Source of the DNA: Bacteroidaceae bacterium
Lineage (GTDB): Bacteria; Bacteroidota; Bacteroidia; Bacteroidales; Bacteroidaceae
Assembly (NCBI GenBank): GCA_017647725.1
Contig: JAGCKB010000176.1
Location: 1-58,328, forward strand
Reading direction: 5' to 3'
DNA: 58,328 nt
Shown here: positions 1 to 58,328 of the stretch, piece by piece
How positions within the stretch are numbered: position 1 is the stretch's first letter
How the letters are laid out: each line of letters begins with the position of its first letter
The notes under the pieces: model-generated
Databases searched by the model: none
What the model saw: the letters and a program-made list of their open reading frames with translations, nothing else
What the model was told of the DNA's origin: nothing
Translations under genes and position numbers: made by a program

Positions 1-54
1 CTTGGCGATATATATGCGCAGGGATATAATACAACTGAGGAAGAGGCGCCGGAG

Positions 55-3000
55 GTGAAAAGGGTTTTTGATGCGGAGCTCGAGAAGGCAATGGCTACTT
101 TTGACGAGGAGACGGTGCAGAAGTTGATGGATGATCCTGAAGCCGCGTTGTCGCAGATGAATGAGATTGACCGCGAAGAGGCGCAGTCCTTTGTTGATGC
201 TTTTGTGCGTTATGAGGCGATGATTGACCGCGTTAGCGATGACATTGACGAGCGCATCAAGGCGAGTGACAAAGAGATTGAGAGGCGCGTGAATAAGGGT
301 GATGGATTGATTCACCCGGCGATGTTGCGTGGTGAGAATGGCCAGCCTGCGCGCAGGGTGTATGTCGTGAGTGGCAATGTGGCGATCTCGGGTGATGGCA
401 CGATTGACAAGGCTAAATCGAGTGATTTTATAATTGTGCGCGACGCGGAGACTGGAGAACTGGACAAGGCTACGGCAAGCGACTTTGAGAGTGTTGACGA
501 GACTATTGATACTGGTGCAGAAAAACAGACCGCGGCTGATGAGATTGCGCGACAGATGGCTGAAGAAAAGGCTGCGCTGATTGAAGGTGGCTCACAAGGT
601 GAGAGCTCGCAACCGGTTAGTGGTGAGGGTGTGTCACCGGTTGCTGTGCAAGGTGAAAACTCTCCTGTGGTTGACAAGAAGGTGCGACGCGCGGAACTTG
701 AGAAGATTATCCCTGTCAAGGGTAAGAAGAAACAGTTTACGGAGGTTGAGCCTGCGGTGACAGCGGAGTATATTTCACTGCTCACTGACGATGCTGCTAA
801 ACAGGTTGCTGCGGCTGACAAGTATATTGCGATGATTCAGGAGGCGCAACAGAAGGCTGACCCTGTGGAGGCTCTTGAAATGGATGAGCAGATTGCTTAT
901 TGGGAGAGCGTGAAAGCGTTGCTTGCACCACAGGAGCAAGCGGAAAGCGCGCAACCGGTTGCGGAGACTGCTCCTGTTGTTGAGACCCCGCAGGCTACCA
1001 ATGAAATGCAGGAAGCTGATTTGACAGAAGATGTCAAGACAGAGGATGTCAACCAATCCGAGAATAACCTCGAAATGGTTGTCGAGGGTGCCGCTCCCGG
1101 CAATGGCGGTGTGTATGCTGATAATCAAGGAAACCCCGTTGATGCAGACGGCAAATTGATTATTGAAGAGGTTGCTTCTATTGACGAAATCACCGATGAG
1201 GATTTTGAAACTCCAACAAGAAATGTGCAGTTGCCGGCAATTCCTGAAAATGTGGCGATTGCGTTAGGTGCTAATGGCAGACCTGTTGTTATCAAGAAAA
1301 ATGTCTTTGAGAAGAATAGCAATACACACGTTGAATTGGAACCGGAGGACAGCAGGAATATATTGCGTTCTGCATTGTATAATCCTAACATTGTAGGTTC
1401 TACACAACCGATAAGACGACCTGACTATAAGGTTGCTATCAGAACCGGAGAGCAGAATGCAGTCGTGGTACTTGATGTGTACCAAGAAAAAGACTTTGTT
1501 GAGATTGTGGGCTGGAGAATGGTGAATGAGAAAGGTCTTGCAAAAATGCAAAGACAGGCCGAGCGTGAGGGCGGGCAATTCCTCATACTTTCTCCCAATG
1601 ATGGGTCGGCAGCAGCCCTTTCTGCTCTTCCACTCGGTCTGTCTTCTGCAAGCGAAAGTACAACACAATCTGCAAAAGAGCAAGAGAATACGCAAAAAAG
1701 TGGCGAAACTGCGGATAATGGGGGTGAAAATGCTGTTCCCGAGGGGGATATTACTGATAGCGTACTGAATGGTTTATGGGAGAGCCGCGAGGAGTATGGG
1801 TACAGCGAGGATGTGGCTCCGTTGTATGATGCTTTGTATGAAGCGTTGCCGGAAAGCCACCCTGTAAGTAAACGCGGTAAATATATACGTCAGCTTATAG
1901 AGACATCCAAGAAGTACAATCATCCTCTTGCTAAGGCTGTACTTGACAATGTTGCCGAGGGTGCGGCTCCCGGCAATGGCGGAGTGGAGGAAAACGAGGA
2001 AGTTGGCCCATTCGGTAGAATATACCGTCAGTTCAAAGGAAAGGCAAAGGAGGCTATACGGTTCTTACTTAGCAAGAAAGAGGGTGAGGCTGTAGGTGCT
2101 TTGAGCCATCCCGAGATTGGAGATATTGACCTTGTTTGGGGTGAGGAGGGCACAAGTAACAGTGATGGCTACGGCCTTGCAAAACTTGCCAAGTATCACC
2201 CCGAGGTGCTTGAGAACTTACAGGAGATTATCAATGATATGCGTGTTACAAAGCGCAGTGCTAACCGTGTGCAGTTGGAGGGCGATACTCACCAAGCGGC
2301 TGTCCGTTTGACTTGGGATAACAAGAGTAAGAATTGGTTGCTGACTGCTTTTGAAAAGAAAAACAGTGTCTCCGACAATACGACAGACACTGGCGAAACC
2401 TCTGATGGAGGCAAGCAGAATGACACAGCTACTCTGCAAAACACTGTTTCTACCGACGAAAGTACAACACAATCTGCAAAAGAGCAAGAGATTTCTGTTA
2501 AAAGTGACGAAACTGCGCAAAAAGGCAGAAAGCCGAGCGGAAAAAGCGGCCCGAAACAGATTAATGTGGAGAGCCTGATGGGTGAACTCAACAAAAAGGG
2601 CGAAGCTAAATTGAGCGACCACGTTGTTAACCCAAGCGGTAACAAACTTGTGACTGACGAGCGTTACAACGAACTCAAGGAGCGTATGCGCAAGAAGTTG
2701 GGCGGGCAGATGAACATCGGTGTTGACCCCGAGATTCTTGCTATTGGTACTGAAATGGCGGTGTATCATATTGAGAAGGGGGCGAGAAAGTTCGCTGATT
2801 TCGCAAAGGGTATGATTGCTGACTTGGGTGATGCAATACGTCCATACCTCAAGGCGTTCTATAATGGCGCGAGGGAGTTGCCCGAGATTGAAGAGGCTGG
2901 TCTTGCGAAGGATATGACTCCATACGATGATGTCAAGGCTTTTGATGTTGCAAACTTTGACAAACCTTCGGTGGACGCGATGGCTACCGCTGAAACGGTT

Positions 3001-6000
3001 ACACGCGAGGCTGAGGTTGCAAAGGATGTTGAAGCAGTGAAGGCTCCAAAGAAGCGTGAAGGCGCGGAGGGCAAGACACTGCGCAAGGCTACGCAAGAGG
3101 ATTTGGAAAGTAATCCGGAGGTTTATTACAAGGGTGAGAAGCATCGTATATTGATGCTTGTTCATCGTGGCGAGCAGGCATCAAACGGTAATTTTACAAA
3201 GCCTGTGATTGAACGTGTATATCTTGAGAATATGCAGAGTGTGAAGGTTGATGACCTTTATGTTGAAGATACCGACGTAAATGCTAGCATAAATGAAAAT
3301 GATTTTTTACCTTCACAGCAGACAAATATTAATAACTTAAAAGACGATAATAATGGCAGAAAAGAAAACACCCACACAGATAATAGCGGAGCTCAACTTG
3401 GACGAGAAGAACTTCCCGATACTGAGCAAGTGGGAGCCGGAGTACCTGTACAAGACACTGCAAGGAATAGCAAACGCAAGCGGAGGAACGCTGGAGTCGG
3501 CAGCAGTGAACTTGGAAATGGACCTCAGTATGATGTAAACAGAAACTACACCAACGAGGAGATAGAAGAGATTGTGTCGTCGGTTACTGACATTGTTGAT
3601 GGCAAGGTTGTCATTACGGGTGAGGTAACAGATGACATAAAGGCTATTGTCCGTGGATATGAGAGTGGCGGCATTGCAAAGAAGGGTCGCGGAATACTTG
3701 ACGAGTATTACACCGATGGTAAGATTGTAGATGCTGTCAATTTGCTCGTTGCGCCATACTTCAATAGCACAACACCTATAAGGGTGCTTGAGCCAAGTGT
3801 GGGCATTGGTAATTTCATTGAGGCGGTAAACAATATCCCAACATCGGAGGTTGTTGCGTTTGAAATAAACGAGACCACAGCACGCATCGCAAAGATACTT
3901 TACCCGGATGTGGATGTAAACCTCCGTTCTTTTGAGACCGAATTTATAGACGAGAGCGGCAACAAGAAACCTTTGCCGAAGAAATATAGTCTTGTAATAG
4001 GCAACCCGCCTTACGGCTCGCACAGAGGTTTGTATAAAGGACTGGGAGAGGAAAGTAAGATTGCAAGATATGAGGATTATTTTGTAAAGCGTTCTCTCGA
4101 TGTCCTCGATGAAGGCGGTGTGCTTGCGATGGTGCTGCCAAGTTCTTGGATGGACAGACATACAAAGTTTGGTGGTTATACAATAGAAAGGGCATACAGA
4201 CTCCCGAGCGGCGCGTTTGAGGCCACACAGGTAGGCACGGATATTGTCATTCTAAGAAAAGATAGCTCTGTGCCGGTAATGGAGCGTGCTCCTTACTTTG
4301 AGCAGCATCCTGAAAGGGTCCTTGGGGAGATTAAAGAACGTAAAGGTCGTTACGGAAGAACCGAAACGTTTGTTGAGGGCGATATTGATGCAGCTATTGA
4401 GGCTATCAAGAAAGAAAATGCCGAGCAAGTGGCTGAGTTGTTGAGTATCGAAAAGAACAATGATGCTCTTAACGATATTGAATCGGCTGTAGAAGAGACT
4501 GGCGGTACAGAAAAGGCTGTAGCTATAGTCAAGGAGGCGCAAGATAGCGAGAAAGCTGCGAGTAAGCGGGAACAGAGCACAAGTTCGCTTGATGCTATGC
4601 CGAGCGAGAGCGGGTTGCGCAACGCGAAAGCCGACAATAAACCCGCCACAAAGCCAAGTGGCAAGCCCGGTAAATATAAAGTGGAACTGAACAGGGGTGT
4701 GGAAACGCTACCTACAGCGCTGCAATTCACGCACGAGTTTAGCGATGGTGAGGTTGAGGCGTTTGCAGATACCGATTATGAGGGCGCATTGAGTAATCCG
4801 GCCAAGCACAAGAGGTTTGCAAACTACATCGGTGGCCAAGCTATACACGATTTCTACTATGCTGAGGGTGATATATACAGCAAACTAGCACAGCTGGAAC
4901 AGGAAAAGAACTACATTGTAGAGAACTACGGTGCTGAGCAGTATGAGAAACAGAAAGCATTGCTCGAGAGTGTTATGCCGAAGCAGAAGAGTCTGGAGGA
5001 GATAACCATTTCGCCAAACACTACGTTTGTAAAGAACTTGAATGTGTTGACAGAGGGCGGCAGGGTTTCTCTCAAGGATATGTTTGTGGAGTTTTGCCAC
5101 AAGTTGCCACGACAGGCTTTTGGCAACAGTTCGCCTTGGGAGGTTGTGGGCTATGTCAACAACGAACAGGTGCACGGCACTGACAAGCAGAGAAACGCGC
5201 TTATAAGAGAGCGCAGAAAGAGAGTTGCTAACGATTTGTTCAACAAGTTCCTTTATGAAGAACTTTCTGATAATGCTAAGAGGCAGGTTGTAGCGGCATT
5301 CAACAGGGAATATAACTCGACATATAGACCCGATTATTCTAAAGTGCCGATGTTCTCTACCATAAACAAGGATTTCAAAGGCAAGCCATTGAAACTGACA
5401 AGCGTGCAGCTCGCCGGTATTGGCCGTATGACGGTCAAGGGTGTCGGTGTTTTGGCGCACGAGGTTGGTTTTGGTAAGACTCTTTCGGGTATACTTGCTA
5501 TGCACGAGGCGATGACAAGAGGTTTTGCTGAAAAGCCTTTAATTGTGGTGCCAAATGACAACATTCTGAAACAATGGGTGGAGACTATTGGCGAGGTGTT
5601 GCCTAATGCTACGGTTAATACTCTTGGCAATCTTGGTACGGGGTATGATTTGACAAATTTCAAAGTTAACCCCGGTGAATTTACCATAGTTACATACGAG
5701 GGCCTTAAGGCGATGTCGTTTAGCGATTATACTTACAACCACTTGGCAGCAAAGTTCTCTTATATCACTGAAGATTTGAATAAGCATCAAAGCGAACGCG
5801 ATGTACAGAAGGAGATTGAGAAGAAGAATGAACTGAAGGGTAAAATGAAGCGCGGCGCAAAGCAATCGTATATGTTTGAGGATTTTGGCTTTGACTGGCT
5901 GACGGTTGACGAGGTGCACAATGCCAACCATATTGTAAGTAAAGTGAGACTTGACAAATCTGTTGCGTCGGATTTCAGAAGCCAAAGCCAAAGAACTTCG

Positions 6001-9000
6001 GATTTAGGCCTTAAAACGTGGCTTGCTGCACAATACATCCAAGAGGAAAACAATGGTAGAAATGTATTGTTGCTCAGTGCTACACCCTTTACCAACAAAC
6101 CGCTTGAATATTATTCAATACTTTCTTTGGTGGCGAATGATATGCTTGAACGCAAGGGCTTCTTTAATGTAGACCAGTTCTTTGCTACCTTTATGGAGGC
6201 TGACAATGAACTGGAGATTGGTGCTAACGGCAGACCGACGCAGAAAACAAATGTGCGCAGATTCAGGAATAATGGCTTGTTCCAGCAGTTGCTTAGTGAG
6301 TTTATAGACATCAAGGGAGAGGAGGACAATCCCGAACTTGTGAGACCTGAAAGACTTAATAAGGAGTATAAGATTGCGCAGAACGATTTGACAGCCGAGG
6401 CTATGGCTGCCGCACAAGAGTTATTGAGTGATAACGATACTGTGTTGCAGGGTATTACTCACGCAAGAGCTGCGGCGTTCTCGCCCTATGCTACATCATT
6501 GCTTGGCACGCTGCCTAAAAATCACAAGGAGTTTGTAAAGAACTCGCCAAAGATTGATGCTACTATCAAGATGATTGAACAGAATATCAAGGATAGACCC
6601 GATGCCGGACAGATTATTTATTCTGAGGTTGGCGTGGAGTATTTTCCTCTGATACGCGATTATCTTGTAAAGGAGAGTGGTTTAAAGCCTAGTGAGGTGC
6701 GTATAATCACCGGTGCGACATCGAACAACGAGCGCGTGAATATTCAGTCGGCCTTCAACGATGGCGAGGTTAAGGTTGTTATTGGTAGCCCAGCCATCAA
6801 GGAGGGTTTGAACTTGCAGGGTAACACGACTGATATGTATATACTTTCACTGCCTTGGAACTTTACACAGTTGCGACAGATTGAGGGACGCGGCTGGAGA
6901 CAAGGCAACAGATGGGAGAATATACGTATCAACTATATGCTGACCAATGATAGTGTAGATGTGTTTATGTTGCAAAGACTACAGCTGAAGCAGGGCTTGT
7001 ATAATGAGGCTATGAAGAGCGGTGCAGAGAGCTTGGACGTGAGCGACATTGACACCGCGGAATTGAAAACAGCCTTGATTACTGACCCTGCTGTGCGTGC
7101 CGAGATTGTGACCATACAGGAGAGGGCGAAACTGCAACAGGAGAAAACGCAGATAGAGGCTGACCTGTCTTTTGTTATGCGCAAGTATGAGGCGTATAAC
7201 AAACTGGTGGAAAAGCTAGAAAGCCAAAAGGGCTCTATCAAAATGTATAGAGAATGGGCAAAAAAGGGAGACGCATATTGGGCGCAGAGAGCCGAGCAAG
7301 AAGAGGCGCTGCTGCCGAATATAGAAAACGAACTCGAGGCTGAGAAGCAGAACCTCCTCAAGAAGGGCGTGAATGTTGATGACATTATAAGCCAAACTCA
7401 GCAGGCGCAGAGTGCCATCGCAGCTATTGAAGCGAAGATTGACAACCTTAAAGAGTTTCAAGAGGAACTGACGCAGAAATACCGTGAGGAGAATGAGGCT
7501 AAAGAGATGGAGCGGGGCGACTTGGTTTCTACCTATATAAAGGAACGCAGGGCTGAAAACAGAGGCAGTTTCTACAAGATTCGCCCGAAAGAGAGTGAAA
7601 CCAAGGTCACTGATGAGAACGCTGAGGATGGGGTGTTGTTCCGCGGGGTGAACAAGCAAGCCGAGGAGTTTAATAAGACACATAAGGGCGGTGTTCCGGT
7701 TGTTGAGATTGATCCCAATAATATGGAAGCGGAGCTTGCTGAAGAAGGGTTTGCGACCGAAGAAATAGAAGAACTAAAGGAAAGGATGAAAAAAAGTGTC
7801 GCTGCCGTGTACCACACCGACAAAAAGATTATATATTTGCTTGTTCCCTCACAAGACAAGGAGTCGGTATATTCTATTTGTTGGCACGAAGATACGCATG
7901 CGGCGATTGATTTCCTTGGTCTTACGCCAGAAATGATGGACGAGTTCTATTCTTTTGCGCAAGGGAAAAAGAAAGAGGCGTTTGAGGCCCTTTTGGATAA
8001 GATTGGATATGAGATAGAAGAATATCCGGAGGAGAGTTTGGCCTATGGCGTACAAGCGATGCACATTCTTGATAATTGGGGCGCTGAAACGCTGTCCAAA
8101 CTGTTTGGCTCTACTGCAGAAGGTGCGCAGAGACAGATGGAAATTATTCAACCTTTAATAGATTATATCAACAATGGAAGACAAGGAACACAAAGCTCTG
8201 TTGGAGAAGTTGTCCGAGATAGGGGCATGTATAACAACACAGCAAATCAAAAGAAAACTGCAGAAACAGAAGGAACAGGAGCAACAGCAACAGGAGGACT
8301 CACAGAAGACCAAATAGACGCCATTCAGTCAGTGATGGGTATCTCCCGCAAGGAGGTAATTGAGCGCTACGGCAAGAAGAATAGAACAATGCTCCGCAAG
8401 GGTGAAGGCTCACTTACTGACCGCGAGGTGGTGATGGAGAGTGACCCGTATTCAAAGGTGCTTGGCAAGCCACGTTACTATGGCAAGCGTCAGCGTGAGT
8501 TTGTCGCTCGACAGCGCAGGAGAATGGCTGAGAAGGCTCGAGGGGTGGCTGAGAAGCTGAACCTTGACAATGTTGAGGTGCTGGAGAGCGCTAAGGGCTT
8601 GACGGGCAAGAAGGCTGCGTCAAAGGGTTGGTTCGATTCAAGGACGGGAAAGATTACGGTTGTTGTGTCTAACCACGGCAGCACAACTGATATTACCGAG
8701 ACTGTGCTGCACGAGGCAGTGGCGCATTATGGGTTGAGAAGATTGTTTGGAAATAGTTTTGATGCTTTCCTTGACAATGTGTTCCGTAATGTGACACCGG
8801 AGATTCGTGCGGAGATTACCGAGCTTGCGAAAAGGAATGGTTGGGATTTCCACACTGCGACGGAGGAGTATCTTGCAAGCCTTGCAGAGAATACGAACTT
8901 TGAGAGGGTTAACCCGTCGTTGTGGAGCAATATCAAGAGCTTCTTTATGAAGATGCTTGCGAAGGTGGGTATTACTCTTGATGAGCCTTTGGGTGACAAT

Positions 9001-12000
9001 GAGCTGCGATACATTCTGTGGAGGAGCTACAGAAATATGGCGCTCGACGGCAATCTTGACAATGTTTTTGGCTTGGCTGAGGATGTTGCCAAGCAGTATG
9101 AGCTTGGTGTGGGTAACTATGCAGAAGCGTTGCCGGAGGATAGCGAGGCTGCGGAGGATGAGAGTGGTATCCGTTTCCGTGCGGGTGAACCGGGTATGCC
9201 GGGCTCGGCACGTGAGGAGTATAACCGCAGGGTGCGCAGACCAAATAAGAGTGGCAGCGTGACGATTACCGAGAATGTTGTTGGCAGGGCGTTGGAGGCT
9301 TATCAGGATAGTATGTTTGCATTGAAGGTTTTGCAAGATGCTGTTCAGGCTGAAACGGGAAATGTGATCGCCGATAACGAGAATGCGTATATGGCGGAGA
9401 ATCGTATGAGTTCTACTAACCAAGCGCAGACCGAGGTGTATATGCGTGACTACTTTGCTCCGTTGATGGAGGAGGTGCGCGAATTGATTGGAGCGGGCGT
9501 TGAATATGTGGATGTTGTGCGATACTTGCACGCAAAACACGGTATTGAGCGTAACGAGTATATGCGACGTAAGCAGGCTGAGGAGGCAGCGCGCAAGGAT
9601 ATGGGCACTGAGCCGGTATTGCCGAAAGAGGGTGAACCGGATTACGAGGCTAAGGTAGCGGAAAAGGCGGCTTGGAGAGAGGCGCTTGAGGAACGCACTG
9701 AGCTATATGTAAAGATGTTTGCAAAGCGCGACTATTCGGGATTGACAGCGCTGACTGAGACGGCGAACGCAAAGGAGGCTGAGAAAGCGGCACAGAAGAT
9801 GGTTGACGAGTTTGAAAGAGCGCACGACACAAAACCGTTGTGGAAGGCTATCAACAGTGCTACAAAGGAGAGCTTGAAGAATAATTTTGTCTGCGGCTTG
9901 ATTGACCGCGCGACTTACGACAGCGTGAGTAGGATGTTTGATTTTTATATTCCTTTGCGCGGCTGGGATGAGAATGTCGCGGCAAATGAGTATGAGTACT
10001 TGACAAGCAATAAGCCGATGCTTTCGCCTACCTTAAAGACAATGCACGGAAGAACGAGCCTTGCGGATGACCCGCTGGCAACCATTGCTCATATGGCGAC
10101 GAGTGCGATTGTGCAGGGTAACAGAAACCTGATGAAGCAGAAGTTTATGAACTTTGTGATGAACAACCCGACAAGCCTTGTGACGGTTAGCGAACAGTGG
10201 TATGTGCTGAATAACGCTACGAAGGAGTGGGAGCCGTATACTCCTACTATCCCGGAGGATGCAACACCTGAGCAGGTTGTGAAGATTCTCGAGGATTTTG
10301 AGGATAAGATGCTTGCTGCGGAGCGCGAGGGTACAGCAACACGCAAACGTGCGGGTTTAAAGATTGGTCTCCACGCTACAAAGGCGGAAGGACAGGAGCA
10401 CGTGGTAAGGGTTAAACGCAACGGAAAGGAGTATTGCATATATATTAACGGAAACCCACGCGCGGCACAGGCACTGAATGGATTGACAAACCCTGACGCG
10501 TCTGGCAACAAAGCATACAAACGCGCGCTGGAGGTGAAGAACTTTATGGCACGTATGTTTACGTCGCAGAACCCGGCATTTATCATTACCAACCTTACGC
10601 GAGATGTTATTTGGGCGGGAACAGCGGTTGCAGCGAAGGAGAATGGCGCGTATGTGAGACAGTACACAAAGAACATAACCGGTGCATTGGTGAAGCTCAA
10701 GCTGCCGAAGCTAATCCGTAAGTTCCAAAATGGTACGCTCAATATGAATAATGAGGTTGAGAGATATTTCAACGAGTTTATGCTCAATGGTGGCGAGACT
10801 GGATTTACACAGGTGAACACTGTTGATGATTACAAGAAGAAAATCAACCGCCTTGTCGAAGAGAGTAAGAATGACGTTGGAATACCCGAGAGAGCTTGGC
10901 GAGGTTTTAGGAAGGGCGTTAAGTTTTTGGGCAGCGGCGTTGAGTTTTTGAACCGCAGCGCGGAGGATGTGACACGTTTCAATGTGTATATGACCTCGCG
11001 TCAAATGGGTAGGAGTATTGCCCGGAGTGTTTGGGATGCGAAGGAGATTACCGTAAACTTCAACAAGAAGGGTAGCGGTGGTATGCGTGCTAGATATGTG
11101 AACTTTGCCTATATCTTCTTTAATGCAACGGTGCAGAGTGCTGCGAACTTTGGCAAATTGGCGTATAACAACCCGGGCAAAATGTCGGCGGCGCTGGGCT
11201 TGACTGGAACGATAGGTTTTATGCTGCCTATAATTAATAACGCTATGTTGGCGATGTTTGGTGACGATGATGACAAAGACGCATATTGGAACTTACCTGA
11301 ATGGGTGAGAAGAAACAATATAGTGTTGTGGGTTGGCGGTGGTTTTATCACGATACCGCTACCGCACGAACTTAGACCTTTCTATGGTATGGGTGAGGCT
11401 GCATATTCAGTGCTTGCCGGTAAACAGGAGGCTGAAGATGCTATTGCCAGCGCGGCGAAGGGATTTGCCGAGTTATTGCCTCTTGACTTTACAGGTAATG
11501 GCGGTGATGCGGTTATAAACTTTACACCGACGATTGTGCAACCTATTGTGCAAATATGGAGAAACACTGATTACTTTGGCAAGCCTATTTACAGGGATAA
11601 TCCGTTCAACAAACGCGCGCCGGAATGGACTAAGGCGTATAAGGGTACAAACAGCACTCTTGTTGCTGCGACTAAGTGGCTGAATGAGCTCGGTGGCGGT
11701 GACGATGTGAAGAGTGGCGGTCTTTTGGACTGGAATCCTGCTTGGATTGAACATACTGTCGAGAGTTACTTGGGCGGTGTAGGCAAGACGCTGAATAAGA
11801 CTTATAAGACGTTCTCTATGATTTGGGATGATGAAATGCGTGAGTGGAAGAATGTTCCCGTTGTGAGCAGTTTCTACCAAAGTGAGGATGAGAAAACCGC
11901 AGACCGACATTTGAACGAGGAATATTTTGACTTGGTTGACGGTTTGGAGGAGTTTGAATATCTGCTGAATGGTTATAGGAAGCAGATTATGAAAGGAAAG

Positions 12001-12216
12001 ACCGAATATGAAGGCGCGTATGAGGAAATGATTAACGCGCCCGAGATGGAGATGTATTGGACGGTTAAAAAGTATAGCGGTAAGGTTAGTGAGCTTAATT
12101 CAATCATCAAAAGTTACCCCCTCAGTGATACTGAAAAGAAGGAGATTGAGACTGAAATAAGGAAGCTAAAACAGGAAATGTTGACCGAGGTTGATAAATT
12201 GCTACCCGAGGAGTGA
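55..12216 (+). CDS. giant polyvalent protein (>=4053 aa): N6-adenine DNA methyltransferase + SNF2/DEAD-like helicase + two zincin-like motifs + hydrophobic C-terminal region; probably virion-packaged/injected
   Basis: Single uninterrupted ORF. The same frame has no stop back to nt 1, so the real 5' end may lie outside the window (the listed start is GTG). Motifs read from the translation: EPSVGIGNF and NPPY (MTase); GFGKT, DEVH, SATP, QIEGRGWRQGN (helicase); HEDTH and HEAVAH (metallopeptidase-like). It ends ~110 nt upstream of the portal gene, followed by a hairpin terminator. Confidence 0.85.
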   Translation: MKRVFDAELEKAMATFDEETVQKLMDDPEAALSQMNEIDREEAQSFVDAFVRYEAMIDRVSDDIDERIKASDKEIERRVNKGDGLIHPAMLRGENGQPARRVYVVSGNVAISGDGTIDKAKSSDFIIVRDAETGELDKATASDFESVDETIDTGAEKQTAADEIARQMAEEKAALIEGGSQGESSQPVSGEGVSPVAVQGENSPVVDKKVRRAELEKIIPVKGKKKQFTEVEPAVTAEYISLLTDDAAKQVAAADKYIAMIQEAQQKADPVEALEMDEQIAYWESVKALLAPQEQAESAQPVAETAPVVETPQATNEMQEADLTEDVKTEDVNQSENNLEMVVEGAAPGNGGVYADNQGNPVDADGKLIIEEVASIDEITDEDFETPTRNVQLPAIPENVAIALGANGRPVVIKKNVFEKNSNTHVELEPEDSRNILRSALYNPNIVGSTQPIRRPDYKVAIRTGEQNAVVVLDVYQEKDFVEIVGWRMVNEKGLAKMQRQAEREGGQFLILSPNDGSAAALSALPLGLSSASESTTQSAKEQENTQKSGETADNGGENAVPEGDITDSVLNGLWESREEYGYSEDVAPLYDALYEALPESHPVSKRGKYIRQLIETSKKYNHPLAKAVLDNVAEGAAPGNGGVEENEEVGPFGRIYRQFKGKAKEAIRFLLSKKEGEAVGALSHPEIGDIDLVWGEEGTSNSDGYGLAKLAKYHPEVLENLQEIINDMRVTKRSANRVQLEGDTHQAAVRLTWDNKSKNWLLTAFEKKNSVSDNTTDTGETSDGGKQNDTATLQNTVSTDESTTQSAKEQEISVKSDETAQKGRKPSGKSGPKQINVESLMGELNKKGEAKLSDHVVNPSGNKLVTDERYNELKERMRKKLGGQMNIGVDPEILAIGTEMAVYHIEKGARKFADFAKGMIADLGDAIRPYLKAFYNGARELPEIEEAGLAKDMTPYDDVKAFDVANFDKPSVDAMATAETVTREAEVAKDVEAVKAPKKREGAEGKTLRKATQEDLESNPEVYYKGEKHRILMLVHRGEQASNGNFTKPVIERVYLENMQSVKVDDLYVEDTDVNASINENDFLPSQQTNINNLKDDNNGRKENTHTDNSGAQLGREELPDTEQVGAGVPVQDTARNSKRKRRNAGVGSSELGNGPQYDVNRNYTNEEIEEIVSSVTDIVDGKVVITGEVTDDIKAIVRGYESGGIAKKGRGILDEYYTDGKIVDAVNLLVAPYFNSTTPIRVLEPSVGIGNFIEAVNNIPTSEVVAFEINETTARIAKILYPDVDVNLRSFETEFIDESGNKKPLPKKYSLVIGNPPYGSHRGLYKGLGEESKIARYEDYFVKRSLDVLDEGGVLAMVLPSSWMDRHTKFGGYTIERAYRLPSGAFEATQVGTDIVILRKDSSVPVMERAPYFEQHPERVLGEIKERKGRYGRTETFVEGDIDAAIEAIKKENAEQVAELLSIEKNNDALNDIESAVEETGGTEKAVAIVKEAQDSEKAASKREQSTSSLDAMPSESGLRNAKADNKPATKPSGKPGKYKVELNRGVETLPTALQFTHEFSDGEVEAFADTDYEGALSNPAKHKRFANYIGGQAIHDFYYAEGDIYSKLAQLEQEKNYIVENYGAEQYEKQKALLESVMPKQKSLEEITISPNTTFVKNLNVLTEGGRVSLKDMFVEFCHKLPRQAFGNSSPWEVVGYVNNEQVHGTDKQRNALIRERRKRVANDLFNKFLYEELSDNAKRQVVAAFNREYNSTYRPDYSKVPMFSTINKDFKGKPLKLTSVQLAGIGRMTVKGVGVLAHEVGFGKTLSGILAMHEAMTRGFAEKPLIVVPNDNILKQWVETIGEVLPNATVNTLGNLGTGYDLTNFKVNPGEFTIVTYEGLKAMSFSDYTYNHLAAKFSYITEDLNKHQSERDVQKEIEKKNELKGKMKRGAKQSYMFEDFGFDWLTVDEVHNANHIVSKVRLDKSVASDFRSQSQRTSDLGLKTWLAAQYIQEENNGRNVLLLSATPFTNKPLEYYSILSLVANDMLERKGFFNVDQFFATFMEADNELEIGANGRPTQKTNVRRFRNNGLFQQLLSEFIDIKGEEDNPELVRPERLNKEYKIAQNDLTAEAMAAAQELLSDNDTVLQGITHARAAAFSPYATSLLGTLPKNHKEFVKNSPKIDATIKMIEQNIKDRPDAGQIIYSEVGVEYFPLIRDYLVKESGLKPSEVRIITGATSNNERVNIQSAFNDGEVKVVIGSPAIKEGLNLQGNTTDMYILSLPWNFTQLRQIEGRGWRQGNRWENIRINYMLTNDSVDVFMLQRLQLKQGLYNEAMKSGAESLDVSDIDTAELKTALITDPAVRAEIVTIQERAKLQQEKTQIEADLSFVMRKYEAYNKLVEKLESQKGSIKMYREWAKKGDAYWAQRAEQEEALLPNIENELEAEKQNLLKKGVNVDDIISQTQQAQSAIAAIEAKIDNLKEFQEELTQKYREENEAKEMERGDLVSTYIKERRAENRGSFYKIRPKESETKVTDENAEDGVLFRGVNKQAEEFNKTHKGGVPVVEIDPNNMEAELAEEGFATEEIEELKERMKKSVAAVYHTDKKIIYLLVPSQDKESVYSICWHEDTHAAIDFLGLTPEMMDEFYSFAQGKKKEAFEALLDKIGYEIEEYPEESLAYGVQAMHILDNWGAETLSKLFGSTAEGAQRQMEIIQPLIDYINNGRQGTQSSVGEVVRDRGMYNNTANQKKTAETEGTGATATGGLTEDQIDAIQSVMGISRKEVIERYGKKNRTMLRKGEGSLTDREVVMESDPYSKVLGKPRYYGKRQREFVARQRRRMAEKARGVAEKLNLDNVEVLESAKGLTGKKAASKGWFDSRTGKITVVVSNHGSTTDITETVLHEAVAHYGLRRLFGNSFDAFLDNVFRNVTPEIRAEITELAKRNGWDFHTATEEYLASLAENTNFERVNPSLWSNIKSFFMKMLAKVGITLDEPLGDNELRYILWRSYRNMALDGNLDNVFGLAEDVAKQYELGVGNYAEALPEDSEAAEDESGIRFRAGEPGMPGSAREEYNRRVRRPNKSGSVTITENVVGRALEAYQDSMFALKVLQDAVQAETGNVIADNENAYMAENRMSSTNQAQTEVYMRDYFAPLMEEVRELIGAGVEYVDVVRYLHAKHGIERNEYMRRKQAEEAARKDMGTEPVLPKEGEPDYEAKVAEKAAWREALEERTELYVKMFAKRDYSGLTALTETANAKEAEKAAQKMVDEFERAHDTKPLWKAINSATKESLKNNFVCGLIDRATYDSVSRMFDFYIPLRGWDENVAANEYEYLTSNKPMLSPTLKTMHGRTSLADDPLATIAHMATSAIVQGNRNLMKQKFMNFVMNNPTSLVTVSEQWYVLNNATKEWEPYTPTIPEDATPEQVVKILEDFEDKMLAAEREGTATRKRAGLKIGLHATKAEGQEHVVRVKRNGKEYCIYINGNPRAAQALNGLTNPDASGNKAYKRALEVKNFMARMFTSQNPAFIITNLTRDVIWAGTAVAAKENGAYVRQYTKNITGALVKLKLPKLIRKFQNGTLNMNNEVERYFNEFMLNGGETGFTQVNTVDDYKKKINRLVEESKNDVGIPERAWRGFRKGVKFLGSGVEFLNRSAEDVTRFNVYMTSRQMGRSIARSVWDAKEITVNFNKKGSGGMRARYVNFAYIFFNATVQSAANFGKLAYNNPGKMSAALGLTGTIGFMLPIINNAMLAMFGDDDDKDAYWNLPEWVRRNNIVLWVGGGFITIPLPHELRPFYGMGEAAYSVLAGKQEAEDAIASAAKGFAELLPLDFTGNGGDAVINFTPTIVQPIVQIWRNTDYFGKPIYRDNPFNKRAPEWTKAYKGTNSTLVAATKWLNELGGGDDVKSGGLLDWNPAWIEHTVESYLGGVGKTLNKTYKTFSMIWDDEMREWKNVPVVSSFYQSEDEKTADRHLNEEYFDLVDGLEEFEYLLNGYRKQIMKGKTEYEGAYEEMINAPEMEMYWTVKKYSGKVSELNSIIKSYPLSDTEKKEIETEIRKLKQEMLTEVDKLLPEE
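1084..1986 (+). repeat. 30-nt linker repeat pair inside the giant ORF (copies 1084-1113 and 1957-1986)
   Basis: GAGGGTGC(C/G)GCTCCCGGCAATGGCGG(T/A)GTG is 28/30 identical between copies. Both copies encode EGAAPGNGGV. Confidence 0.9.
1653..2491 (+). repeat. 35-nt perfect repeat pair inside the giant ORF (copies 1653-1687 and 2457-2491)
   Basis: CGAAAGTACAACACAATCTGCAAAAGAGCAAGAGA is identical in both copies, and both encode ESTTQSAKEQE. Each copy is followed a few nt later by the near-repeat AAAAGTG(G/A)CGAAACTGCG. Confidence 0.9.
3652..4315 (+). other. N6-adenine DNA methyltransferase domain of the giant ORF
   Basis: SAM-binding-like EPSVGIGNF at nt 3790-3816 and catalytic NPPY (in VIGNPPYG) at nt 4003-4014. 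Domain borders are approximate. Confidence 0.8.
5400..6930 (+). other. SNF2/DEAD-like helicase domain of the giant ORF
   Basis: Motif I HEVGFGKT (GFGKT at nt 5467-5481), motif II DEVH (5908-5919), motif III SATP (6076-6087), motif VI-like QIEGRGWRQGN (6877-6909). Confidence 0.8.
7885..7899 (+). other. HExxH zincin-like motif 1 (HEDTH) in the giant ORF
   Basis: Context is SVYSICWHEDTHAAIDF. This is a motif-only call. Confidence 0.45.
8710..8727 (+). other. HExxxH zincin-like motif 2 (HEAVAH) in the giant ORF
   Basis: Context TDITETVLHEAVAHYGLRRLFG resembles the context of motif 1: a beta-strand-like run, then H-E. This is a motif-only call. Confidence 0.4.
10570..11420 (+). other. hydrophobic (possible membrane-inserting) segments in the C-terminal quarter of the giant ORF
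   Basis: Runs such as NPAFIITNLTRDVIWAGTAVAA, YVNFAYIFFNATVQSAANFG, MSAALGLTGTIGFMLPIINNAMLAMFG and NIVLWVGGGFITIPLP were read from the translation. Confidence 0.45.
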
Positions 12217-12325: not shown

Positions 12326-14281
12326 ATGGAGAGAAAAAGACTTATTCCGAAGAGTCGCGCAGTGTTTAAGCAGAATGCTGAGCTGGACACAGTGAAGAGG
12401 GCTAAGAGCCGAGAAGGACGCGCGATGGATATTCTGATGGAGGCGCAGGTGCATTGGACGAATATGGACAAGTTCAGGCGCGACAGGGAGAGAAACAAGA
12501 GATATGCGTATGGCGACCAGTGGAAGGATATTGTGACGGTTGACGGCAAGACGATGACCGAGGAGCAGTATATCCTTGAACAGGGTAACATTCCACTAAA
12601 GAATAACCTTATACGCAGGTTGCTTAGGAATATGCTTGGTGCATACCGAATGCAGACGAAAGAGCCGTTGTGTGTGGCGCGTGACCGCGATGAACAACAA
12701 CTTGGAGAAACAATGAGCGCGATGTTGCAGTATAATGGTCAGTTGAATATGCTGCAGGGATTGTATGCGCGAGGTATGGAGGAGTTTTTGATTAGTGGTC
12801 TCATTGCACACAAGAAATGGTTTGGGTGGAATAGTAAACGTGACAAGTCGGATTGTTGGACTGATCCTGTTGACCCGAGCTGTTTCTTTGTGGATAACAA
12901 TATGAAGGACTTTCGCACGTGGGATGTGTCGTTCATTGGCGAGATACACGATGTTAGTTTTGAAGATTTGTGCGGGCAGTTCGCACATTCGCCGGGAGAC
13001 TACGCAAGGTTGACGGATATTTACCGTATGGCAAGAGATAAGGAGCTCGTGATAAATAATTATTCTGACTTTGGATATACGAAACCGAGAAATGATAGTT
13101 TTCTATTCCCTACGGACCTATCGAAATGCCGTGTTATAGAGGTGTGGAAGCTGGAGAGTAAACCGAGGATTCGTTGCCGTGATTACAATACGGGCGAACT
13201 TTACAAGATTGACATTGAGGACTATGAGGAGTTGGTGGTGAGAGAGAATGCTGAGAGACACCGACAGGCGCGTGAGGTTGGTATGCCTGATGAGGACGTG
13301 CCGGAGATTGTGCCTGAGTGGTTTTACGATAGCTTTTGGTATAGGTATTACTTGACACCATTTGGTGATATTCTTGAAGAGGGCGAGACTCCATACGAGC
13401 ATAAGAGCCACCCTTATGTGTTCAAGATGTATCCTTTTATAGACGGTGAGATACATTCTTTTGTGGCGGATGTGATTGACCAGCAGAGATACACGAACCG
13501 ATTGATTACCTTATATGATTGGATAATGCGCGCGAGCGCGAAGGGTGTATTGCTGTTCCCCGAGGAGTGTTTGCCTGACGGTACGAGTTTGGAGGATATT
13601 GCGGAGAATTGGGCTAGATTTGACGGCGTGATAGCGATAAAGGCTAAAGCGGGTGTGCCTCTGCCACAGCAGATAAGTAACAACTCGACGAATATAGGCA
13701 TTACCGAGTTGCTTAACTTGCAGTTAAAGTTGTTTGAGGATATTAGTGGCGTGAATGGTGCCCTTCAAGGTAAACAGGGTTACAGCGGTATGAGCGCATC
13801 GTTATATGCACAGCAGGCGCAAAATGCTTCGACATCGCTACTTGACCTGTTTGAGACATACAGCGAGTTCGTTATTGACGCTGCATATAAGGATGTGAAG
13901 AATATCCAGCAGTCGTATGACCGCAAAAAGATATTTAACATTGCGGGTAGGAAGGCTGAGGTCGTATACGACCCTGAGAAGATTAGGGATGTTGAGTTTG
14001 ACCTGTCTATCGTGGAGAGTAATATGACGCCGGTTTTCCGTGAACGCGCAAACGAGCTGCTTATGGAGCTGTTTAAAGCGAAGGCCATCAATGTGGAGCA
14101 GTTGCTTGAGAGTGGTAGTTTCCCATTTGCGGATGAGTTGTTGCAGAGTATACGCAATCAACAGCAGGCAGTGCAGAACGGACAGATGCCGCAGGGATTA
14201 CCGCCCGAGCTTATGGCACAGGTACAGCAAGGAGCTGATATGATGGCAGTGAACAGAGCACAGCAGTTGCTGGCGGCTTGA
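12326..14281 (+). CDS. portal protein
   Basis: A 651-aa ORF lying between the giant ORF and the terminase/scaffold/capsid genes. The N-terminal RNKRYAYGDQW-type motif is typical of portal N-termini. The call rests on size and synteny. Confidence 0.75.
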   Translation: MERKRLIPKSRAVFKQNAELDTVKRAKSREGRAMDILMEAQVHWTNMDKFRRDRERNKRYAYGDQWKDIVTVDGKTMTEEQYILEQGNIPLKNNLIRRLLRNMLGAYRMQTKEPLCVARDRDEQQLGETMSAMLQYNGQLNMLQGLYARGMEEFLISGLIAHKKWFGWNSKRDKSDCWTDPVDPSCFFVDNNMKDFRTWDVSFIGEIHDVSFEDLCGQFAHSPGDYARLTDIYRMARDKELVINNYSDFGYTKPRNDSFLFPTDLSKCRVIEVWKLESKPRIRCRDYNTGELYKIDIEDYEELVVRENAERHRQAREVGMPDEDVPEIVPEWFYDSFWYRYYLTPFGDILEEGETPYEHKSHPYVFKMYPFIDGEIHSFVADVIDQQRYTNRLITLYDWIMRASAKGVLLFPEECLPDGTSLEDIAENWARFDGVIAIKAKAGVPLPQQISNNSTNIGITELLNLQLKLFEDISGVNGALQGKQGYSGMSASLYAQQAQNASTSLLDLFETYSEFVIDAAYKDVKNIQQSYDRKKIFNIAGRKAEVVYDPEKIRDVEFDLSIVESNMTPVFRERANELLMELFKAKAINVEQLLESGSFPFADELLQSIRNQQQAVQNGQMPQGLPPELMAQVQQGADMMAVNRAQQLLAA

Positions 14282-14290: not shown

Positions 14291-14317
14291 AGCGTGACAA
14301 ATTGTCACGCTTTTTTT
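14291..14317. terminator. bidirectional hairpin terminator between the convergent portal and terminase genes
   Basis: AGCGTGACA-aat-TGTCACGCT followed by T7. It overlaps the terminase stop codon. Confidence 0.75.
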
Positions 14318-19721: not shown

Positions 19722-20374
19722 TGTTTTATAATCTTGGAGACATAAAAGAGGCGGTGCGCATTGCGCTTGATGAGAATCGGGTGAGTGACAACTTAATGGA
19801 TATTGATACATTATCGTTGGACGAGATTATCTGTTCAAAGATTGAGGAGGCGGTGAATGATATTCACTCGCGTGCGCCTATATATATGTTGGAACCGGGA
19901 AATATCTCTGATGATGAGGTAATGTTCGCGGAGTCTATCGCGTGGGAAAAGGAGGAAGGTAAGGGTCCGGGATGGACTATTCTACCGAATGACTTTCACC
20001 GCCTTATTGGCTTCAAGATGAGTGATTGGGAGAGACCGGTATATAGTGCTATCCTCCCGGATGATCCCTTATACGCGTTGCAGAAATCGAGATTTGCCGG
20101 TGTAAGGGGCAATACACAGAAACCTGTATGCGCTATTGTGATGCGATCTGTGGGTAGAGTGCTTGAGTTCTTTTCGTGTGCTGAAGGAGAGGGCGTTTAT
20201 GTTGATATGGCTGTGTATCTCCCTGTTTCAAAAATAAAGGAAGAGGGAATAAATATCTGTGAGAGATGCTACAAGAGTGTGGTTTACAAGGTCGCAGGGT
20301 TGGCGGCAGTGAATATGGGTATGGTGGATAAGGCGAATGCTTTGTTTGAAATTTCTAATGGTTTGCTTAAATGA
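19721..20374 (+). CDS. hypothetical virion protein (head-tail adaptor candidate)
   Basis: 217-aa ORF between the capsid-side genes and the tail fibre, overlapping the fibre gene by 4 nt. Confidence 0.5.
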   Translation: MFYNLGDIKEAVRIALDENRVSDNLMDIDTLSLDEIICSKIEEAVNDIHSRAPIYMLEPGNISDDEVMFAESIAWEKEEGKGPGWTILPNDFHRLIGFKMSDWERPVYSAILPDDPLYALQKSRFAGVRGNTQKPVCAIVMRSVGRVLEFFSCAEGEGVYVDMAVYLPVSKIKEEGINICERCYKSVVYKVAGLAAVNMGMVDKANALFEISNGLLK

Positions 20375-27108: not shown

Positions 27109-27411
27109 ATGAACAAGAATGCTAAAGAGGTATATGACCGAGTTCTCGCGGTTGTGCTCGATGACTTTGGATTGACCGCGGAAAAAATGTTTAACTCAAA
27201 CGAACCTGACTGTGTAAATGCCAGAGCGTCGTTGATTATATCTTTACGCGATGAGGGGTTGAGCGATAAAGAGATCGCCGATTGCACACAGAAAATGAGA
27301 CGTTGCAGCGTGTGCCTCATCCGTAATAGATATAGTGACAAAACGGCGCACTGGGAGGTTAAGATGTGCATTGAACGAATTAAAAAGCTGAAAGGTGGGG
27401 CTAACTCATAA
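27109..27411 (+). CDS. hypothetical protein with possible HTH segment
   Basis: 100 aa. LSDKEIADCTQ resembles an HTH. It converges on, and overlaps by 11 nt, the integrase 3' end. Confidence 0.45.
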   Translation: MNKNAKEVYDRVLAVVLDDFGLTAEKMFNSNEPDCVNARASLIISLRDEGLSDKEIADCTQKMRRCSVCLIRNRYSDKTAHWEVKMCIERIKKLKGGANS

Positions 27412-36262: not shown

Positions 36263-36269
36263 ATTTACA

Positions 36270-36910: not shown

Positions 36911-36967
36911 TGTCTATAATACTTTTAGGTAGTCTTAACCATTCTCCTTTACTATTACTTAACTCAA

Positions 36968-37090: not shown

Positions 37091-37091
37091 A

Positions 37092-37286: not shown

Positions 37287-37287
37287 A

Positions 37288-37784: not shown

Positions 37785-37786
37785 AA

Positions 37787-38017: not shown

Positions 38018-38019
38018 AA

Positions 38020-38584: not shown

Positions 38585-38586
38585 AG

Positions 38587-57188: not shown

Positions 57189-57731
57189 ATGATTGGTTCT
57201 ATAGCTGGTGCTGCGCTGGGCGTAGCGGGCAACATCGCCGGCGGTGTTATGCGTGACAAGGCGATGAAGAGGGCTCAAGCGGAGCTGGAGAGAAAGGAAC
57301 GCGAGAATGCTGATTGGTATAATCGCAAGTATAATGAGGACGCGACAGCGAGGGCTGATGCGCAGCGTGCCATTACGATGACGGAGGAGGCGATGAAGAG
57401 CCGTAACCGTGCGGCGCAGGGTGCGGCGGCGGTGATGGGTGGTTCGCAGGATGCGGTAATCGCAGCGCAGAGTGCTAATGCGGCGGCGATGGCTGACACG
57501 GCGAGCAGTATTGCGGCGAGTGCGGAGGCAAGGAAGGATGCGGTGGAGGCGCAGTATCGTGCGCAGAAGGATGCGATTAGTGACCAGCGCAGAGCGAATG
57601 AGATTGCAAAGGCGAATGCTATTGCGAGCTCTATTCAGGGTGTGACACAGGCGGGTGCGTCGATTGCAGATGCGTTTGGCCAGAGTGGTGACATTACGGG
57701 TCTTGTGAAGAAGAAGGAGGATGAGATATGA
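57189..57731 (+). CDS. hypothetical Ala/Gln-rich protein with Gly-rich hydrophobic N-terminus (internal virion protein candidate)
   Basis: 180 aa, the first gene of the plus-strand late block, with an ATGA overlap with the next ORF. Confidence 0.5.
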   Translation: MIGSIAGAALGVAGNIAGGVMRDKAMKRAQAELERKERENADWYNRKYNEDATARADAQRAITMTEEAMKSRNRAAQGAAAVMGGSQDAVIAAQSANAAAMADTASSIAASAEARKDAVEAQYRAQKDAISDQRRANEIAKANAIASSIQGVTQAGASIADAFGQSGDITGLVKKKEDEI

Positions 57732-58328
57732 GCAGTGTGATGGATGATATTAACAAGAGGCGCGGGGGACAGGCGCTGGCGAGAGTTAATGGTGTGTCGG
57801 CACCGCAGCAGCCTGCGGCAAAGCCTATGGGAGACCAAGCGCTGGCGAGAGTGGCGCAAGGCGCTTCTATCCCTGCTGTGCCTGCTGGGACTGAACCGAG
57901 TGCCGGCGCAACGGCTGAACAGGTGGCGACAGCGAAGATGTTGATGCCTGCTGTGGCGGATTTTGCTCCACAGAGTGATGCACCGGCGGTGACAACTCCG
58001 GCAGCTCCCGCGGTGGAGCCTGTGACTACTTACACGGATATTGCGAAGAGGATGAGCCCTGAGTTGGATGCGGAGCAGAAGGCGGAGCGTGAGAGGCGGT
58101 TGAGGAATAAACAACAGGTGGCGGCGATTGGTGATGCGATTAGCGCACTTGCGAATATGCACTACACGGGCACGAGTGGCGTGAATGCTTATGATCCTTC
58201 GGCGGCACTGAGCACGAAGGCGAGAGCGAGATATGATAAGTTCTTGGCTGATGTCAAGGCGTATGAGGATGCGCACAAGGCGGCGATGTTGCGTGGCGAG
58301 GAACTTGATGCGGCTGCTACGGAGGCGA
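57728..58328 (+). CDS. hypothetical protein, 3'-truncated by the window edge (not in the ORF track)
   Basis: My own translation from ATG 57728 gives MSSVMDDINKRRGGQALARVNGVSAPQQ... and stays open to nt 58328. Confidence 0.5.
   Translation, partial: MSSVMDDINKRRGGQALARVNGVSAPQQPAAKPMGDQALARVAQGASIPAVPAGTEPSAGATAEQVATAKMLMPAVADFAPQSDAPAVTTPAAPAVEPVTTYTDIAKRMSPELDAEQKAERERRLRNKQQVAAIGDAISALANMHYTGTSGVNAYDPSAALSTKARARYDKFLADVKAYEDAHKAAMLRGEELDAAATEA

Follow-up and report, generated by a model that had tools for sequence, protein, structure and literature searches.

A giant LPD38-terminated gene beside the portal gene of a Bacteroidales phage: a polyvalent protein with constant ends and a probable place in the virion

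The 58,328-nucleotide (nt) contig JAGCKB010000176.1 from a Bacteroidaceae assembly, analyzed in full and referred to here as the window, opens with a giant open reading frame (ORF) whose product is securely placed in the phage polyvalent or DarB-like group of proteins that end in an LPD38 module. We consider it fairly probable that this product is the polyvalent protein of a temperate phage of the short-tailed type infecting Bacteroidales, that it combines constant ends with an exchangeable enzymatic middle, and that it would be packaged, ejected, and used to deliver its enzymes. The family is known, very large, and already described, so the value of this member is confirmatory. The additions are modest: the extent and fold of the C-terminal module, the arrangement of constant ends and variable middle among close relatives, a conserved hydrophobic helix, and a gp14-like neighbor.

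Extent and domain content of the giant protein

The position of the giant gene is defined by the following features.

1..12216, + strand: giant polyvalent ORF, truncated at the 5' end by the contig end, 4071 codons present
12326-14281, + strand: P22-type portal gene (phrog_156, E = 2e-84; Pfam P22_portal, E = 1.9e-37)
1..669, + strand: N-proximal segment, amino acids (aa) 1-223, common to complete relatives
57728..58328, + strand: middle gene of the upstream cassette, homolog of gp2 of phage BS-TP4 and gp56 of phage BKO1-TP3, open at the contig end

The giant ORF is real. An initial annotation, made from the letters alone, had described one uninterrupted frame filling about a fifth of the sequence and still open at nt 1, and this is what we found: a single open frame from nt 1 to a stop codon at 12214-12216, equal to 20.9% of the window. 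Counted from its first possible start, a GTG at nt 55, it has 4053 codons. Guanine-cytosine (GC) content (0.46-0.50) and GC skew are even throughout its length. The portal gene follows after a gap of 110 nt, as the annotation's placement of the ORF directly upstream of it implied, and the terminase adjoins.

The length given earlier holds, whereas completeness does not. A check of the true 5' end, which the annotation had called for, showed that the contig is incomplete: the first ~200-220 residues of the window protein (aa 1-223) align to residues ~640-910 of complete giants, for which we used BS-TP4, nine viral-contig relatives, and the four closest database proteins. Since, in addition, the last ORF of the window is the gp2 homolog, the N terminus of the giant and the C-terminal half of the preceding gene are missing; judging from these alignments, ~640-710 N-terminal residues of the giant lie off the contig. 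The window could not be closed into a circle, as its ends differ in frame and share no overlap. By homology, ~2.7-3 kb separates them, and an exact 29-mer search of viral and metagenome contigs for the missing 5' end gave no match.

Upstream of its metallopeptidase-like and C-terminal regions, the protein carries the following domains.

1144..1560, + strand: LPD13, aa 382-520, function unknown (Pfam, E = 1e-51)
2104..2367, + strand: PBECR1, aa 702-789, a predicted barnase/EndoU/colicin-E5/RelE-like RNase (Pfam, E = 3e-10; Iyer et al. 2017)
2566..3090, + strand: conserved domain without a Pfam model, aa 856-1030, 65% identical to BS-TP4 gp3 residues 2317-2492
3763..4200, + strand: Eco57I-type N6-adenine methyltransferase, aa ~1255-1400 (motif I EPSVGIGNF, motif IV NPPY)
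5443..6906, + strand: SNF2/ResIII helicase core and Helicase_C, aa 1815-2302 (GFGKT, DEVH, SAT, QxxGRxxR)

All of the sequence motifs cited in the initial annotation are present, namely EPSVGIGNF (aa 1264), NPPY (aa 1335), GFGKT (aa 1823), DEVH (aa 1970), SATP (aa 2026), and QIEGRGWRQGN (aa 2293), together with the two histidine motifs discussed below, and the catalytic motifs of both the methyltransferase and the helicase are intact. Pfam supplies the profile support on which these two assignments depended (Eco57I methylase at aa 1306-1385, SNF2-rel_dom/ResIII at aa 1815-1978, and Helicase_C at aa 2226-2302) and adds LPD13, PBECR1, and LPD38, which had not been named. The enzymatic activities themselves are predictions from this domain content.

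The grouping with polyvalent proteins draws on several kinds of evidence. Enzymatic domains unrelated to one another (PBECR1 RNase, Eco57I-type methyltransferase, and SNF2 helicase) share one polypeptide, and two LPD (large polyvalent-protein-associated) domains are present by Pfam (LPD13, E = 1e-51; LPD38, E = 7e-42), the latter found in phage-type members only, according to Iyer et al. 2017 (PMC5512222). The gene lies among the late or virion genes of a phage with portal and terminase, and, as in DarB-like proteins, an N6-adenine methyltransferase and a helicase are fused in one protein. Successive slices of the protein align to PHROG families of giant phage proteins, among them phrog_10089, “DarB-like antirestriction” (profile length, 4647), and phrog_14770 (profile length, 3427), which covers the last ~1280 residues. 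The best match to the whole methyltransferase-helicase block is a full-length alignment to the “putative methylase” of Leptospira phage LE1, and the block aligns in part to DarB-like proteins of Burkholderia and Ralstonia phages. The DarB proteins of P1 and P7 align to the helicase half only (23.5% identity, E = 1e-9), and the methyltransferase half gave no alignment to P1 DarB at E ≤ 1e-5. The modular fusion of methyltransferase, helicase, and metallopeptidase-like parts, of the P1 DarB or polyvalent kind, that had been proposed is supported.

Two details of this region may be recorded here. The 175-aa domain at aa 856-1030 is 65% identical between the window giant and BS-TP4 gp3, against 35-40% elsewhere between the two proteins, and it also matches internal parts of several giant-protein PHROGs. 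Furthermore, two linker peptides each occur twice in alternation, EGAAPGNGGV at aa 362 and aa 653 (window positions 1084-1113 and 1957-1986) and ESTTQSAKEQE at aa 552 and aa 820 (1654-1686 and 2458-2490), so that the same pair frames different domains, LPD13 the first time and PBECR1 the second. At the DNA level, a 78-nt repeat lies at 1644-1721 and 2448-2525 inside the ORF. Neither peptide is present in the homologs compared; they might act as handles for recombination that swaps domains, or as sites for a protease.

The conserved C-terminal module and the variable middle

The rest of the protein contains two metallopeptidase-like domains and a large C-terminal module.

7663..8370, + strand: rare domain, aa ~2555-2790, with HEDTH at aa 2629; invariant HExxH and distal invariant Glu
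8428..9120, + strand: HEXXXH domain, aa ~2810-3040, with HEAVAH at aa 2904; predicted zincin-like topology
9148..12213, + strand: conserved C-terminal module, aa 3050-4071, mostly alpha-helical
11182..11256, + strand: the only notably hydrophobic helix, aa 3728-3752 (Kyte-Doolittle score, 1.4)
11278-11865, + strand: Pfam LPD38 core within the C-terminal module, aa 3760-3955 (E = 7e-42)

The C-terminal module is one conserved unit, far larger than the 189-residue Pfam LPD38 model. By tblastn it occurs in 342 phage records, which include three Bacteroides phages, Stx-converting and other Escherichia coli phages, and Vibrio, Ralstonia, and Burkholderia phages and extend to a Bacillus podophage and a Methanosarcina virus; no match to P1 was listed, nor was P1 among the groups matched. 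In every case inspected, the module terminates a giant gene, as in the following examples.

933W L0134: 2806 aa
Vibrio 1.205.O gene 20: 3130 aa
Ralstonia Heva gp07: 4545 aa
BS-TP4 gp3: 5391 aa
BKO1-TP3 gp55: 5553 aa

An exhaustive HMMER search with the module returned 6,814 cluster representatives (clusters defined at 50% identity) at E ≤ 0.001 and 3,088 at E ≤ 1e-30. Among the matches listed, 138 of 144 new proteins have at least 2000 aa (median, 4,465; maximum, 7,236), and the match is placed at the extreme C terminus. A stand-alone C-terminal gene was called in two related metagenomic contigs, L005 and L006, and was rejected, as both splits are artefacts: in L005 (9930-9945) a run of N's is flanked by a duplicated 30-mer, and in L006 (~9895-9905) the homology carries on in another frame after a frameshift. 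Gene callers thus give a false stand-alone LPD38 protein of ~1000 aa, which calls for caution with short LPD38 “proteins” in databases.

The initial annotation had asked for a predicted structure of the C-terminal ~1000 aa. The AlphaFold2 model, built from an 80-sequence alignment, is confident (predicted local distance difference test [pLDDT], 84.6; predicted template modeling score [pTM], 0.81) and mostly alpha-helical, with two small beta-sheet elements. In the BFVD collection, 75 predicted viral structures match the whole fold, with template modeling (TM) scores of up to 0.8, and most of these are the last segments of giants with lysozyme, RelA/SpoT, or methylase domains. The C-terminal part of gp25 of phage PTXU04 is matched by the model in BFVD. 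A phmmer search of the whole giant protein against PDB sequences returned nothing.

Several hydrophobic helices had been claimed for the C terminus, which is an overstatement: with a Kyte-Doolittle window of 19 aa, there is one stretch, aa 3728-3752, and its score of 1.4 is below the usual transmembrane threshold of 1.6, compared with 1.99 for its counterpart in BS-TP4. Its position is kept, 338-345 residues from the C terminus, in the window, BS-TP4, 933W, and the Vibrio phage, and in the model it forms one helix within a helical bundle. The conservation of its position hints weakly at a possible membrane-active element.

Overall, members of the family keep their ends and exchange the enzymatic middle. 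Over the last ~1030-1580 residues, the four closest relatives show 61-69% identity to the window protein; they also share its N-proximal segment, and the sequence between these ends differs. The domain directly upstream of the HEXXXH domain varies across relatives among MuF_C, PBECR1-3, ART, InPase, and LPD3. The cargo of more distant giants varies likewise, with LPD5/LPD1/MuF_C in 933W, SLT/methyltransferase/helicase/LPD3 in the Ralstonia proteins, DdrB-ParB/InPase/Strawberry-notch helicase in BS-TP4, and none recognized in the Vibrio phage. The 933W and Vibrio giants also have an N-terminal module in common.

The annotation had further described two zincin-like motifs, of which only one has the canonical form. 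HEDTH is a true HExxH; the domain around it is rare, with three homologs, and its H, E, H, and a distal Glu do not vary. HEAVAH is HEXXXH, not HExxH. Its domain is widespread, with more than 100 homologs, and keeps a constant distance to the C terminus; the invariant residues are H115, E116, H120, a G-L-R motif, and a T-E-E-Y helix. An HEXXXH variant of the metallopeptidase of polyvalent proteins has been described by Iyer et al. (PMC5512222). In the AlphaFold model of this domain (pLDDT, 78), an N-terminal helix leads into three strands, which are followed by the HEXXXH helix and then the Glu helix; this predicted order corresponds to that of a zincin core. The domain had no significant match by Foldseek against the PDB, by a profile search of PDB sequences, or in Pfam, whose metallopeptidase families we set aside as candidates, the single match being a weak SprT-like one in 1 of 47 members. 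The zincin assignment is likely but not confirmed.

Probable packaging, proposed ejection, and competing explanations

Homologs of the giant protein have been found in virions. In CsCl-purified virions, JC1 gp69, a DarB-like protein of 4515 aa, yielded 51 unique peptides and ranked second by score; the two proteins encoded just upstream of it were detected there too (PMC9144972). In phi24B, gp47 (2811 aa; LPD5, LPD1, MuF-C, and LPD38) is abundant in virions and absent from the cryo-electron microscopy (cryo-EM) map, and its authors propose that it is encapsidated, acts as an ejection protein, and helps to form a transperiplasmic conduit (bioRxiv 10.64898/2026.04.10.717836). Judging from these relatives, packaging of the window giant in the capsid is probable.

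Genetic data suggest more than a passenger role. In the Stx2 phage Sp5, ORF80 (2,793 aa) and the preceding ORF79 are essential, and mutants in either package DNA and have normal heads but are not bound by tail fiber antibody (PMC5155283). The PTXU04 gene gp25 (2,198 aa) scored as a Fit gene by CRISPRi-ART (PMC11879866) and, like Sp5 ORF80, is needed for infectious particles. By analogy, the constant modules may plausibly have a structural or ejection function that the phage requires, and a function of this kind has already been put forward in print for a homolog. The initial annotation had combined anti-defense and ejection in this one protein and had stated that no characterized example was known. 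A role beyond anti-defense is backed by the genetics of Sp5 ORF80 and PTXU04 gp25. The membrane-channel argument, which leaned on several hydrophobic helices, does not survive, given one moderate helix and a model that resembles no solved structure. Nor is the combination new: the dual role is already published as a proposal for phi24B gp47, and for the N4 virion RNA polymerase (vRNAP), a giant enzyme, ejection in the company of two smaller ejection proteins is established (PMC13434306).

The initial annotation had also seen no obvious ejection proteins in this genome, and a candidate is now at hand at the far end of the contig.

57189..57731, + strand: 180-aa gene with a Gly-zipper-like N terminus, a gp14-like candidate ejection protein; its family weakly but consistently matches Pfam T7_gp14 (internal virion protein)

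The gene order is 180-aa gene, gp2-like gene, giant. The 180-aa protein is 48% identical to BKO1-TP3 gp57, and relatives are encoded on 170 contigs in a scan of viral contigs. In 18 of 18 loci examined, the gene that comes next, only a few nucleotides after the gp14-like one, has mostly 341-418 aa (294 in one locus), and behind it lies a long ORF, which exceeds 900 aa and is still open at the end of the locus. Within the gp14-like family, 29 of 31 members match Pfam T7_gp14 (best E = 2e-6). The gene before LPD38-terminated giants generally encodes a coiled-coil protein of ~340-510 aa that is conserved by position, and BLAST detects no sequence similarity among these ~400-500-aa partners between phage groups. 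One weak but consistent family match and the gene order make a T7-like reading of the cassette, in the order gp14/gp15/gp16, suggestive.

A possible sequence of events can be outlined from these relatives. To judge from the homologs found in virions, the giant would be made late and incorporated into the capsid. At infection it would exit by way of the portal and tail, accompanied by the two small proteins whose genes lie just upstream. The C-terminal LPD38 module and the N-terminal module missing from the contig would supply the packaging function, the ejection function, or both, and this may be what makes the homologs essential. The middle would deliver enzymes that act in the first minutes of infection: the adenine methyltransferase and SNF2 helicase may shield incoming DNA from restriction, as P1 DarB does, and the PBECR1 RNase and the domains of unknown function would be codelivered. 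Cleavage of the polyprotein into working units may fall to the two metallopeptidase-like domains that directly precede the C-terminal module, as hypothesized by Iyer et al. A more specific version, which we put forward only tentatively, would make the giant the gp16-position part of a three-protein T7-like ejectosome, in which the constant modules build or anchor a trans-envelope conduit, the swappable middle delivers anti-defense enzymes, the conserved, buried hydrophobic helix inserts in the membrane, and the HEXXXH peptidase frees the cargo.

Several results count against this reading of the protein. The match of the window's 180-aa protein to Pfam T7_gp14, full length at E = 0.003, scores 18 bits against a curated cutoff of 27 bits; hhalign against T7 gp14 itself was negative; and the middle genes and the N termini of complete giants gave no gp15 or gp16 family match in Pfam at E ≤ 1. 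The model of the C-terminal module has no counterpart in the PDB by Foldseek (best E = 0.39; TM-score of 0.1 or less), and ejection proteins in the PDB copy searched show no similarity to it. Just one moderately hydrophobic helix is present in the giant, with no set of transmembrane-grade helices as for an integral membrane channel, and there is therefore no case for a classical membrane channel. The resemblance to P1 DarB is confined to the helicase half mentioned above (23.5% identity). The source paper of the Bacteroides phage relatives (PMC12694917) does not discuss the giant gene. Finally, the window portal has no relation detectable by BLAST to the 933W or GP4 lineages and matches three Bacteroides phages only; the giant protein is therefore the sole basis for transferring function, and we do not claim a virion lineage shared with 933W or GP4.

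The strongest alternative, which we nevertheless regard as unlikely, is that the giant is purely accessory anti-restriction cargo, a large DarB that is packaged, injected, and dispensable for assembly and delivery, with the C-terminal module as a capsid-targeting tag. The PHROG annotation “DarB-like antirestriction” and the homology of the methyltransferase-helicase block to DarB-like proteins, and weakly to P1 DarB, suit this view, as do the established dispensability of DarB to P1 (cited in PMC9144972) and the need of N4 vRNAP for its C-terminal 1,400 aa to be encapsidated. However, Sp5 ORF80 and its 933W counterpart L0134 carry the module without methyltransferase or helicase, and the gene is essential for infectious particles; PTXU04 gp25 is a Fit gene; and no cargo domain comes near the module in breadth of conservation.

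We give a lower probability still to a tail-assembly or head-completion factor, in which tail building or attachment, and not an ejection conduit, would depend on the giant or its constant modules. A role in tail assembly was the conclusion of the authors who studied the Sp5 ORF80 and ORF79 mutants, which package DNA into heads of normal appearance but bind no antibody to the tail fiber. However, phi24B gp47, although abundant in virions, does not show up in the resolved density of tail or capsid, which suits a disordered internal protein better than a tail component, and loss of an internal core could destabilize tail attachment indirectly.

A cytoplasmic enzyme that is never packaged, whether an epigenetic or replication helicase-methylase or a phage-borne component of a BREX/DISARM-like defense, is very improbable: in PADLOC the helicase and methylase regions resemble DrmD, BrxH, PglX, and orphan methyltransferases in a generic way, but these matches span generic SNF2 and methyltransferase cores only, the gene lies within a virion module beside the portal gene, homologs are physically present in virions, and LPD38 is confined to phage-type polyvalent proteins. 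Least credible of all is an assembly chimera of unrelated pieces, since, even though the middle differs from that of the closest relatives, the contig is incomplete, and assembly or frameshift errors occur inside the gene in two related metagenomic loci, the 12.2-kb frame is unbroken with even GC content and skew, the methyltransferase, helicase, and LPD38 end also occur together in isolated Ralstonia and Burkholderia phages, and a variable middle is the normal pattern of the family. A packaged and ejected polyvalent protein thus remains the reading we prefer.

Phage context and comparison with known systems

From its gene content, the window looks like the genome of a temperate short-tailed phage; a repressor-like gene is also present in addition to the following features.

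14316-16424, - strand: large terminase
17690-19237: SU10_MCP-like capsid candidate
20371-25134, + strand: fiber-like protein, 1587 aa, with a glycerophosphodiester phosphodiesterase (GDPD) domain at aa 1240-1473 (E = 1.6e-22)
27401-28570: tyrosine integrase
43-51 kb: T7-like replication block (primase-helicase, DNA polymerase, gp2.5-like single-stranded DNA-binding protein, and exonuclease)

Nothing similar to a long-tail module or a tape measure was seen among the ORFs scanned in the window. In a short-tailed structural module, this absence is expected, and the remark in the initial annotation that the genome has no tape measure or other obvious ejection protein therefore stands for the former and is corrected for the latter by the gp14-like candidate.

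Other features of the window are as follows. The fiber-like gene lies in the stretch of lowest GC content of the structural region (0.37-0.39). Its positional counterpart, BS-TP4 gp14, is the target of a diversity-generating retroelement (PMC12694917); such an element was considered for the window and rejected, as no template/variable repeat pair occurs within it. GC content is 0.54-0.56 in the replication block (44000-52000) and 0.36-0.37 in a region of small genes (36000-40000), a mosaicism that suggests modules of different origin. The early or replication region contains a second, separate SNF2-type helicase gene (43265-44644, - strand; 459 aa; phrog_62, E = 8e-160), and the C terminus of its product and the helicase of the giant match common PHROGs (phrog_11354, 11801, and 1685). 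A 491-aa protein (41511-42986, - strand) has a PcfJ-like domain (E = 3e-35), from a family known from conjugative plasmids. A PAPS-reductase-like gene is found at 40063-40929 (- strand); in Ralstonia phage Heva, a cysH-type gene adjoins the virion protein gene and the DarB-like gene. The interval from the integrase region to the small-gene block holds a 1003-aa ORF (31243-34254, - strand) that matches phrog_32516 (E = 3e-165), has no Pfam match, and is of unknown function. ARAGORN found no tRNA genes in the whole window; the Bcep22-like and Ralstonia phages with DarB-like giants have tRNA-Ser.

Phage metagenomes abound in giants with an LPD38 module, each of which fills about a fifth of its genome. 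The window adds a Bacteroidales example with a clear layout of constant ends, swappable enzymes, and a gp14-like neighbor. BS-TP4 and BKO1-TP3 could serve as gut phage systems in which to ask whether the ejection machinery doubles as an effector-delivery device and which host defenses the cargo defeats.

These two isolated, cultured Bacteroides phages, with a syntenic giant beside the portal gene, are also the closest known systems. BS-TP4 gp3, BKO1-TP3 gp55 (annotated as “DarB-like antirestriction”), and the BF1-TP2 homolog occur in the same order as in the window: small gene, ~390-aa gene, giant, portal. The giants are 39% identical to that of the window over the last ~1270 aa and share the N-proximal segment, and the portals are 49-63% identical. 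The middle of the BS-TP4 protein consists of DdrB-ParB, InPase, and a Strawberry-notch-type helicase, whereas that of the window protein consists of LPD13, PBECR1, Eco57I methylase, and SNF2.

The DarB-like proteins of ~4500 aa from Bcep22 (gp75), JC1 (gp69), and Ralstonia phages likewise have an adenine methyltransferase, a helicase, and a C-terminal LPD38, are preceded by a virion protein of ~510 aa, and are ~25-27% identical to the window giant. They differ in that they start with an SLT transglycosylase, their gene lies at the end of the structural module and not by the portal gene, and their hosts are Betaproteobacteria. The giant of the Stx phages (933W L0134, Sp5 ORF80, and phi24B gp47; ~2800 aa) shares its C-terminal module with the window protein at 24-28% identity (E = 1e-29 to 4e-41) and has the hydrophobic helix too; it differs in lacking methyltransferase and helicase and carries LPD5, LPD1, and MuF_C.

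P1 DarB travels inside the phage head and guards incoming DNA against type I restriction. Like the window giant, it has a methyltransferase and a helicase in one polypeptide, and its helicase half aligns (E = 1e-9); unlike the window giant, it has 2255 aa, is nonessential, and comes from a myovirus. The N4 vRNAP (gp50; ~3500 aa) is a beads-on-a-string enzyme that is encapsidated and expelled with gp51 and gp52, and its C-terminal region has a metallopeptidase-like domain and is needed for encapsidation, although its cargo, an RNA polymerase, differs from that of the window. N4 proteins showed no sequence or structural similarity to the C-terminal module, with the proviso that the PDB copy searched may predate the N4 structures. 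The T7 proteins gp14, gp15, and gp16 are encoded, like the window cassette, by three consecutive genes of rising size, the first family in the cassette matching T7_gp14 weakly but consistently. T7 gp16 has a transglycosylase domain, and the giant of Ralstonia phage Heva opens with an SLT transglycosylase domain in the same way, a feature shared with the Ralstonia giants; the window giant is three to four times larger than gp16.

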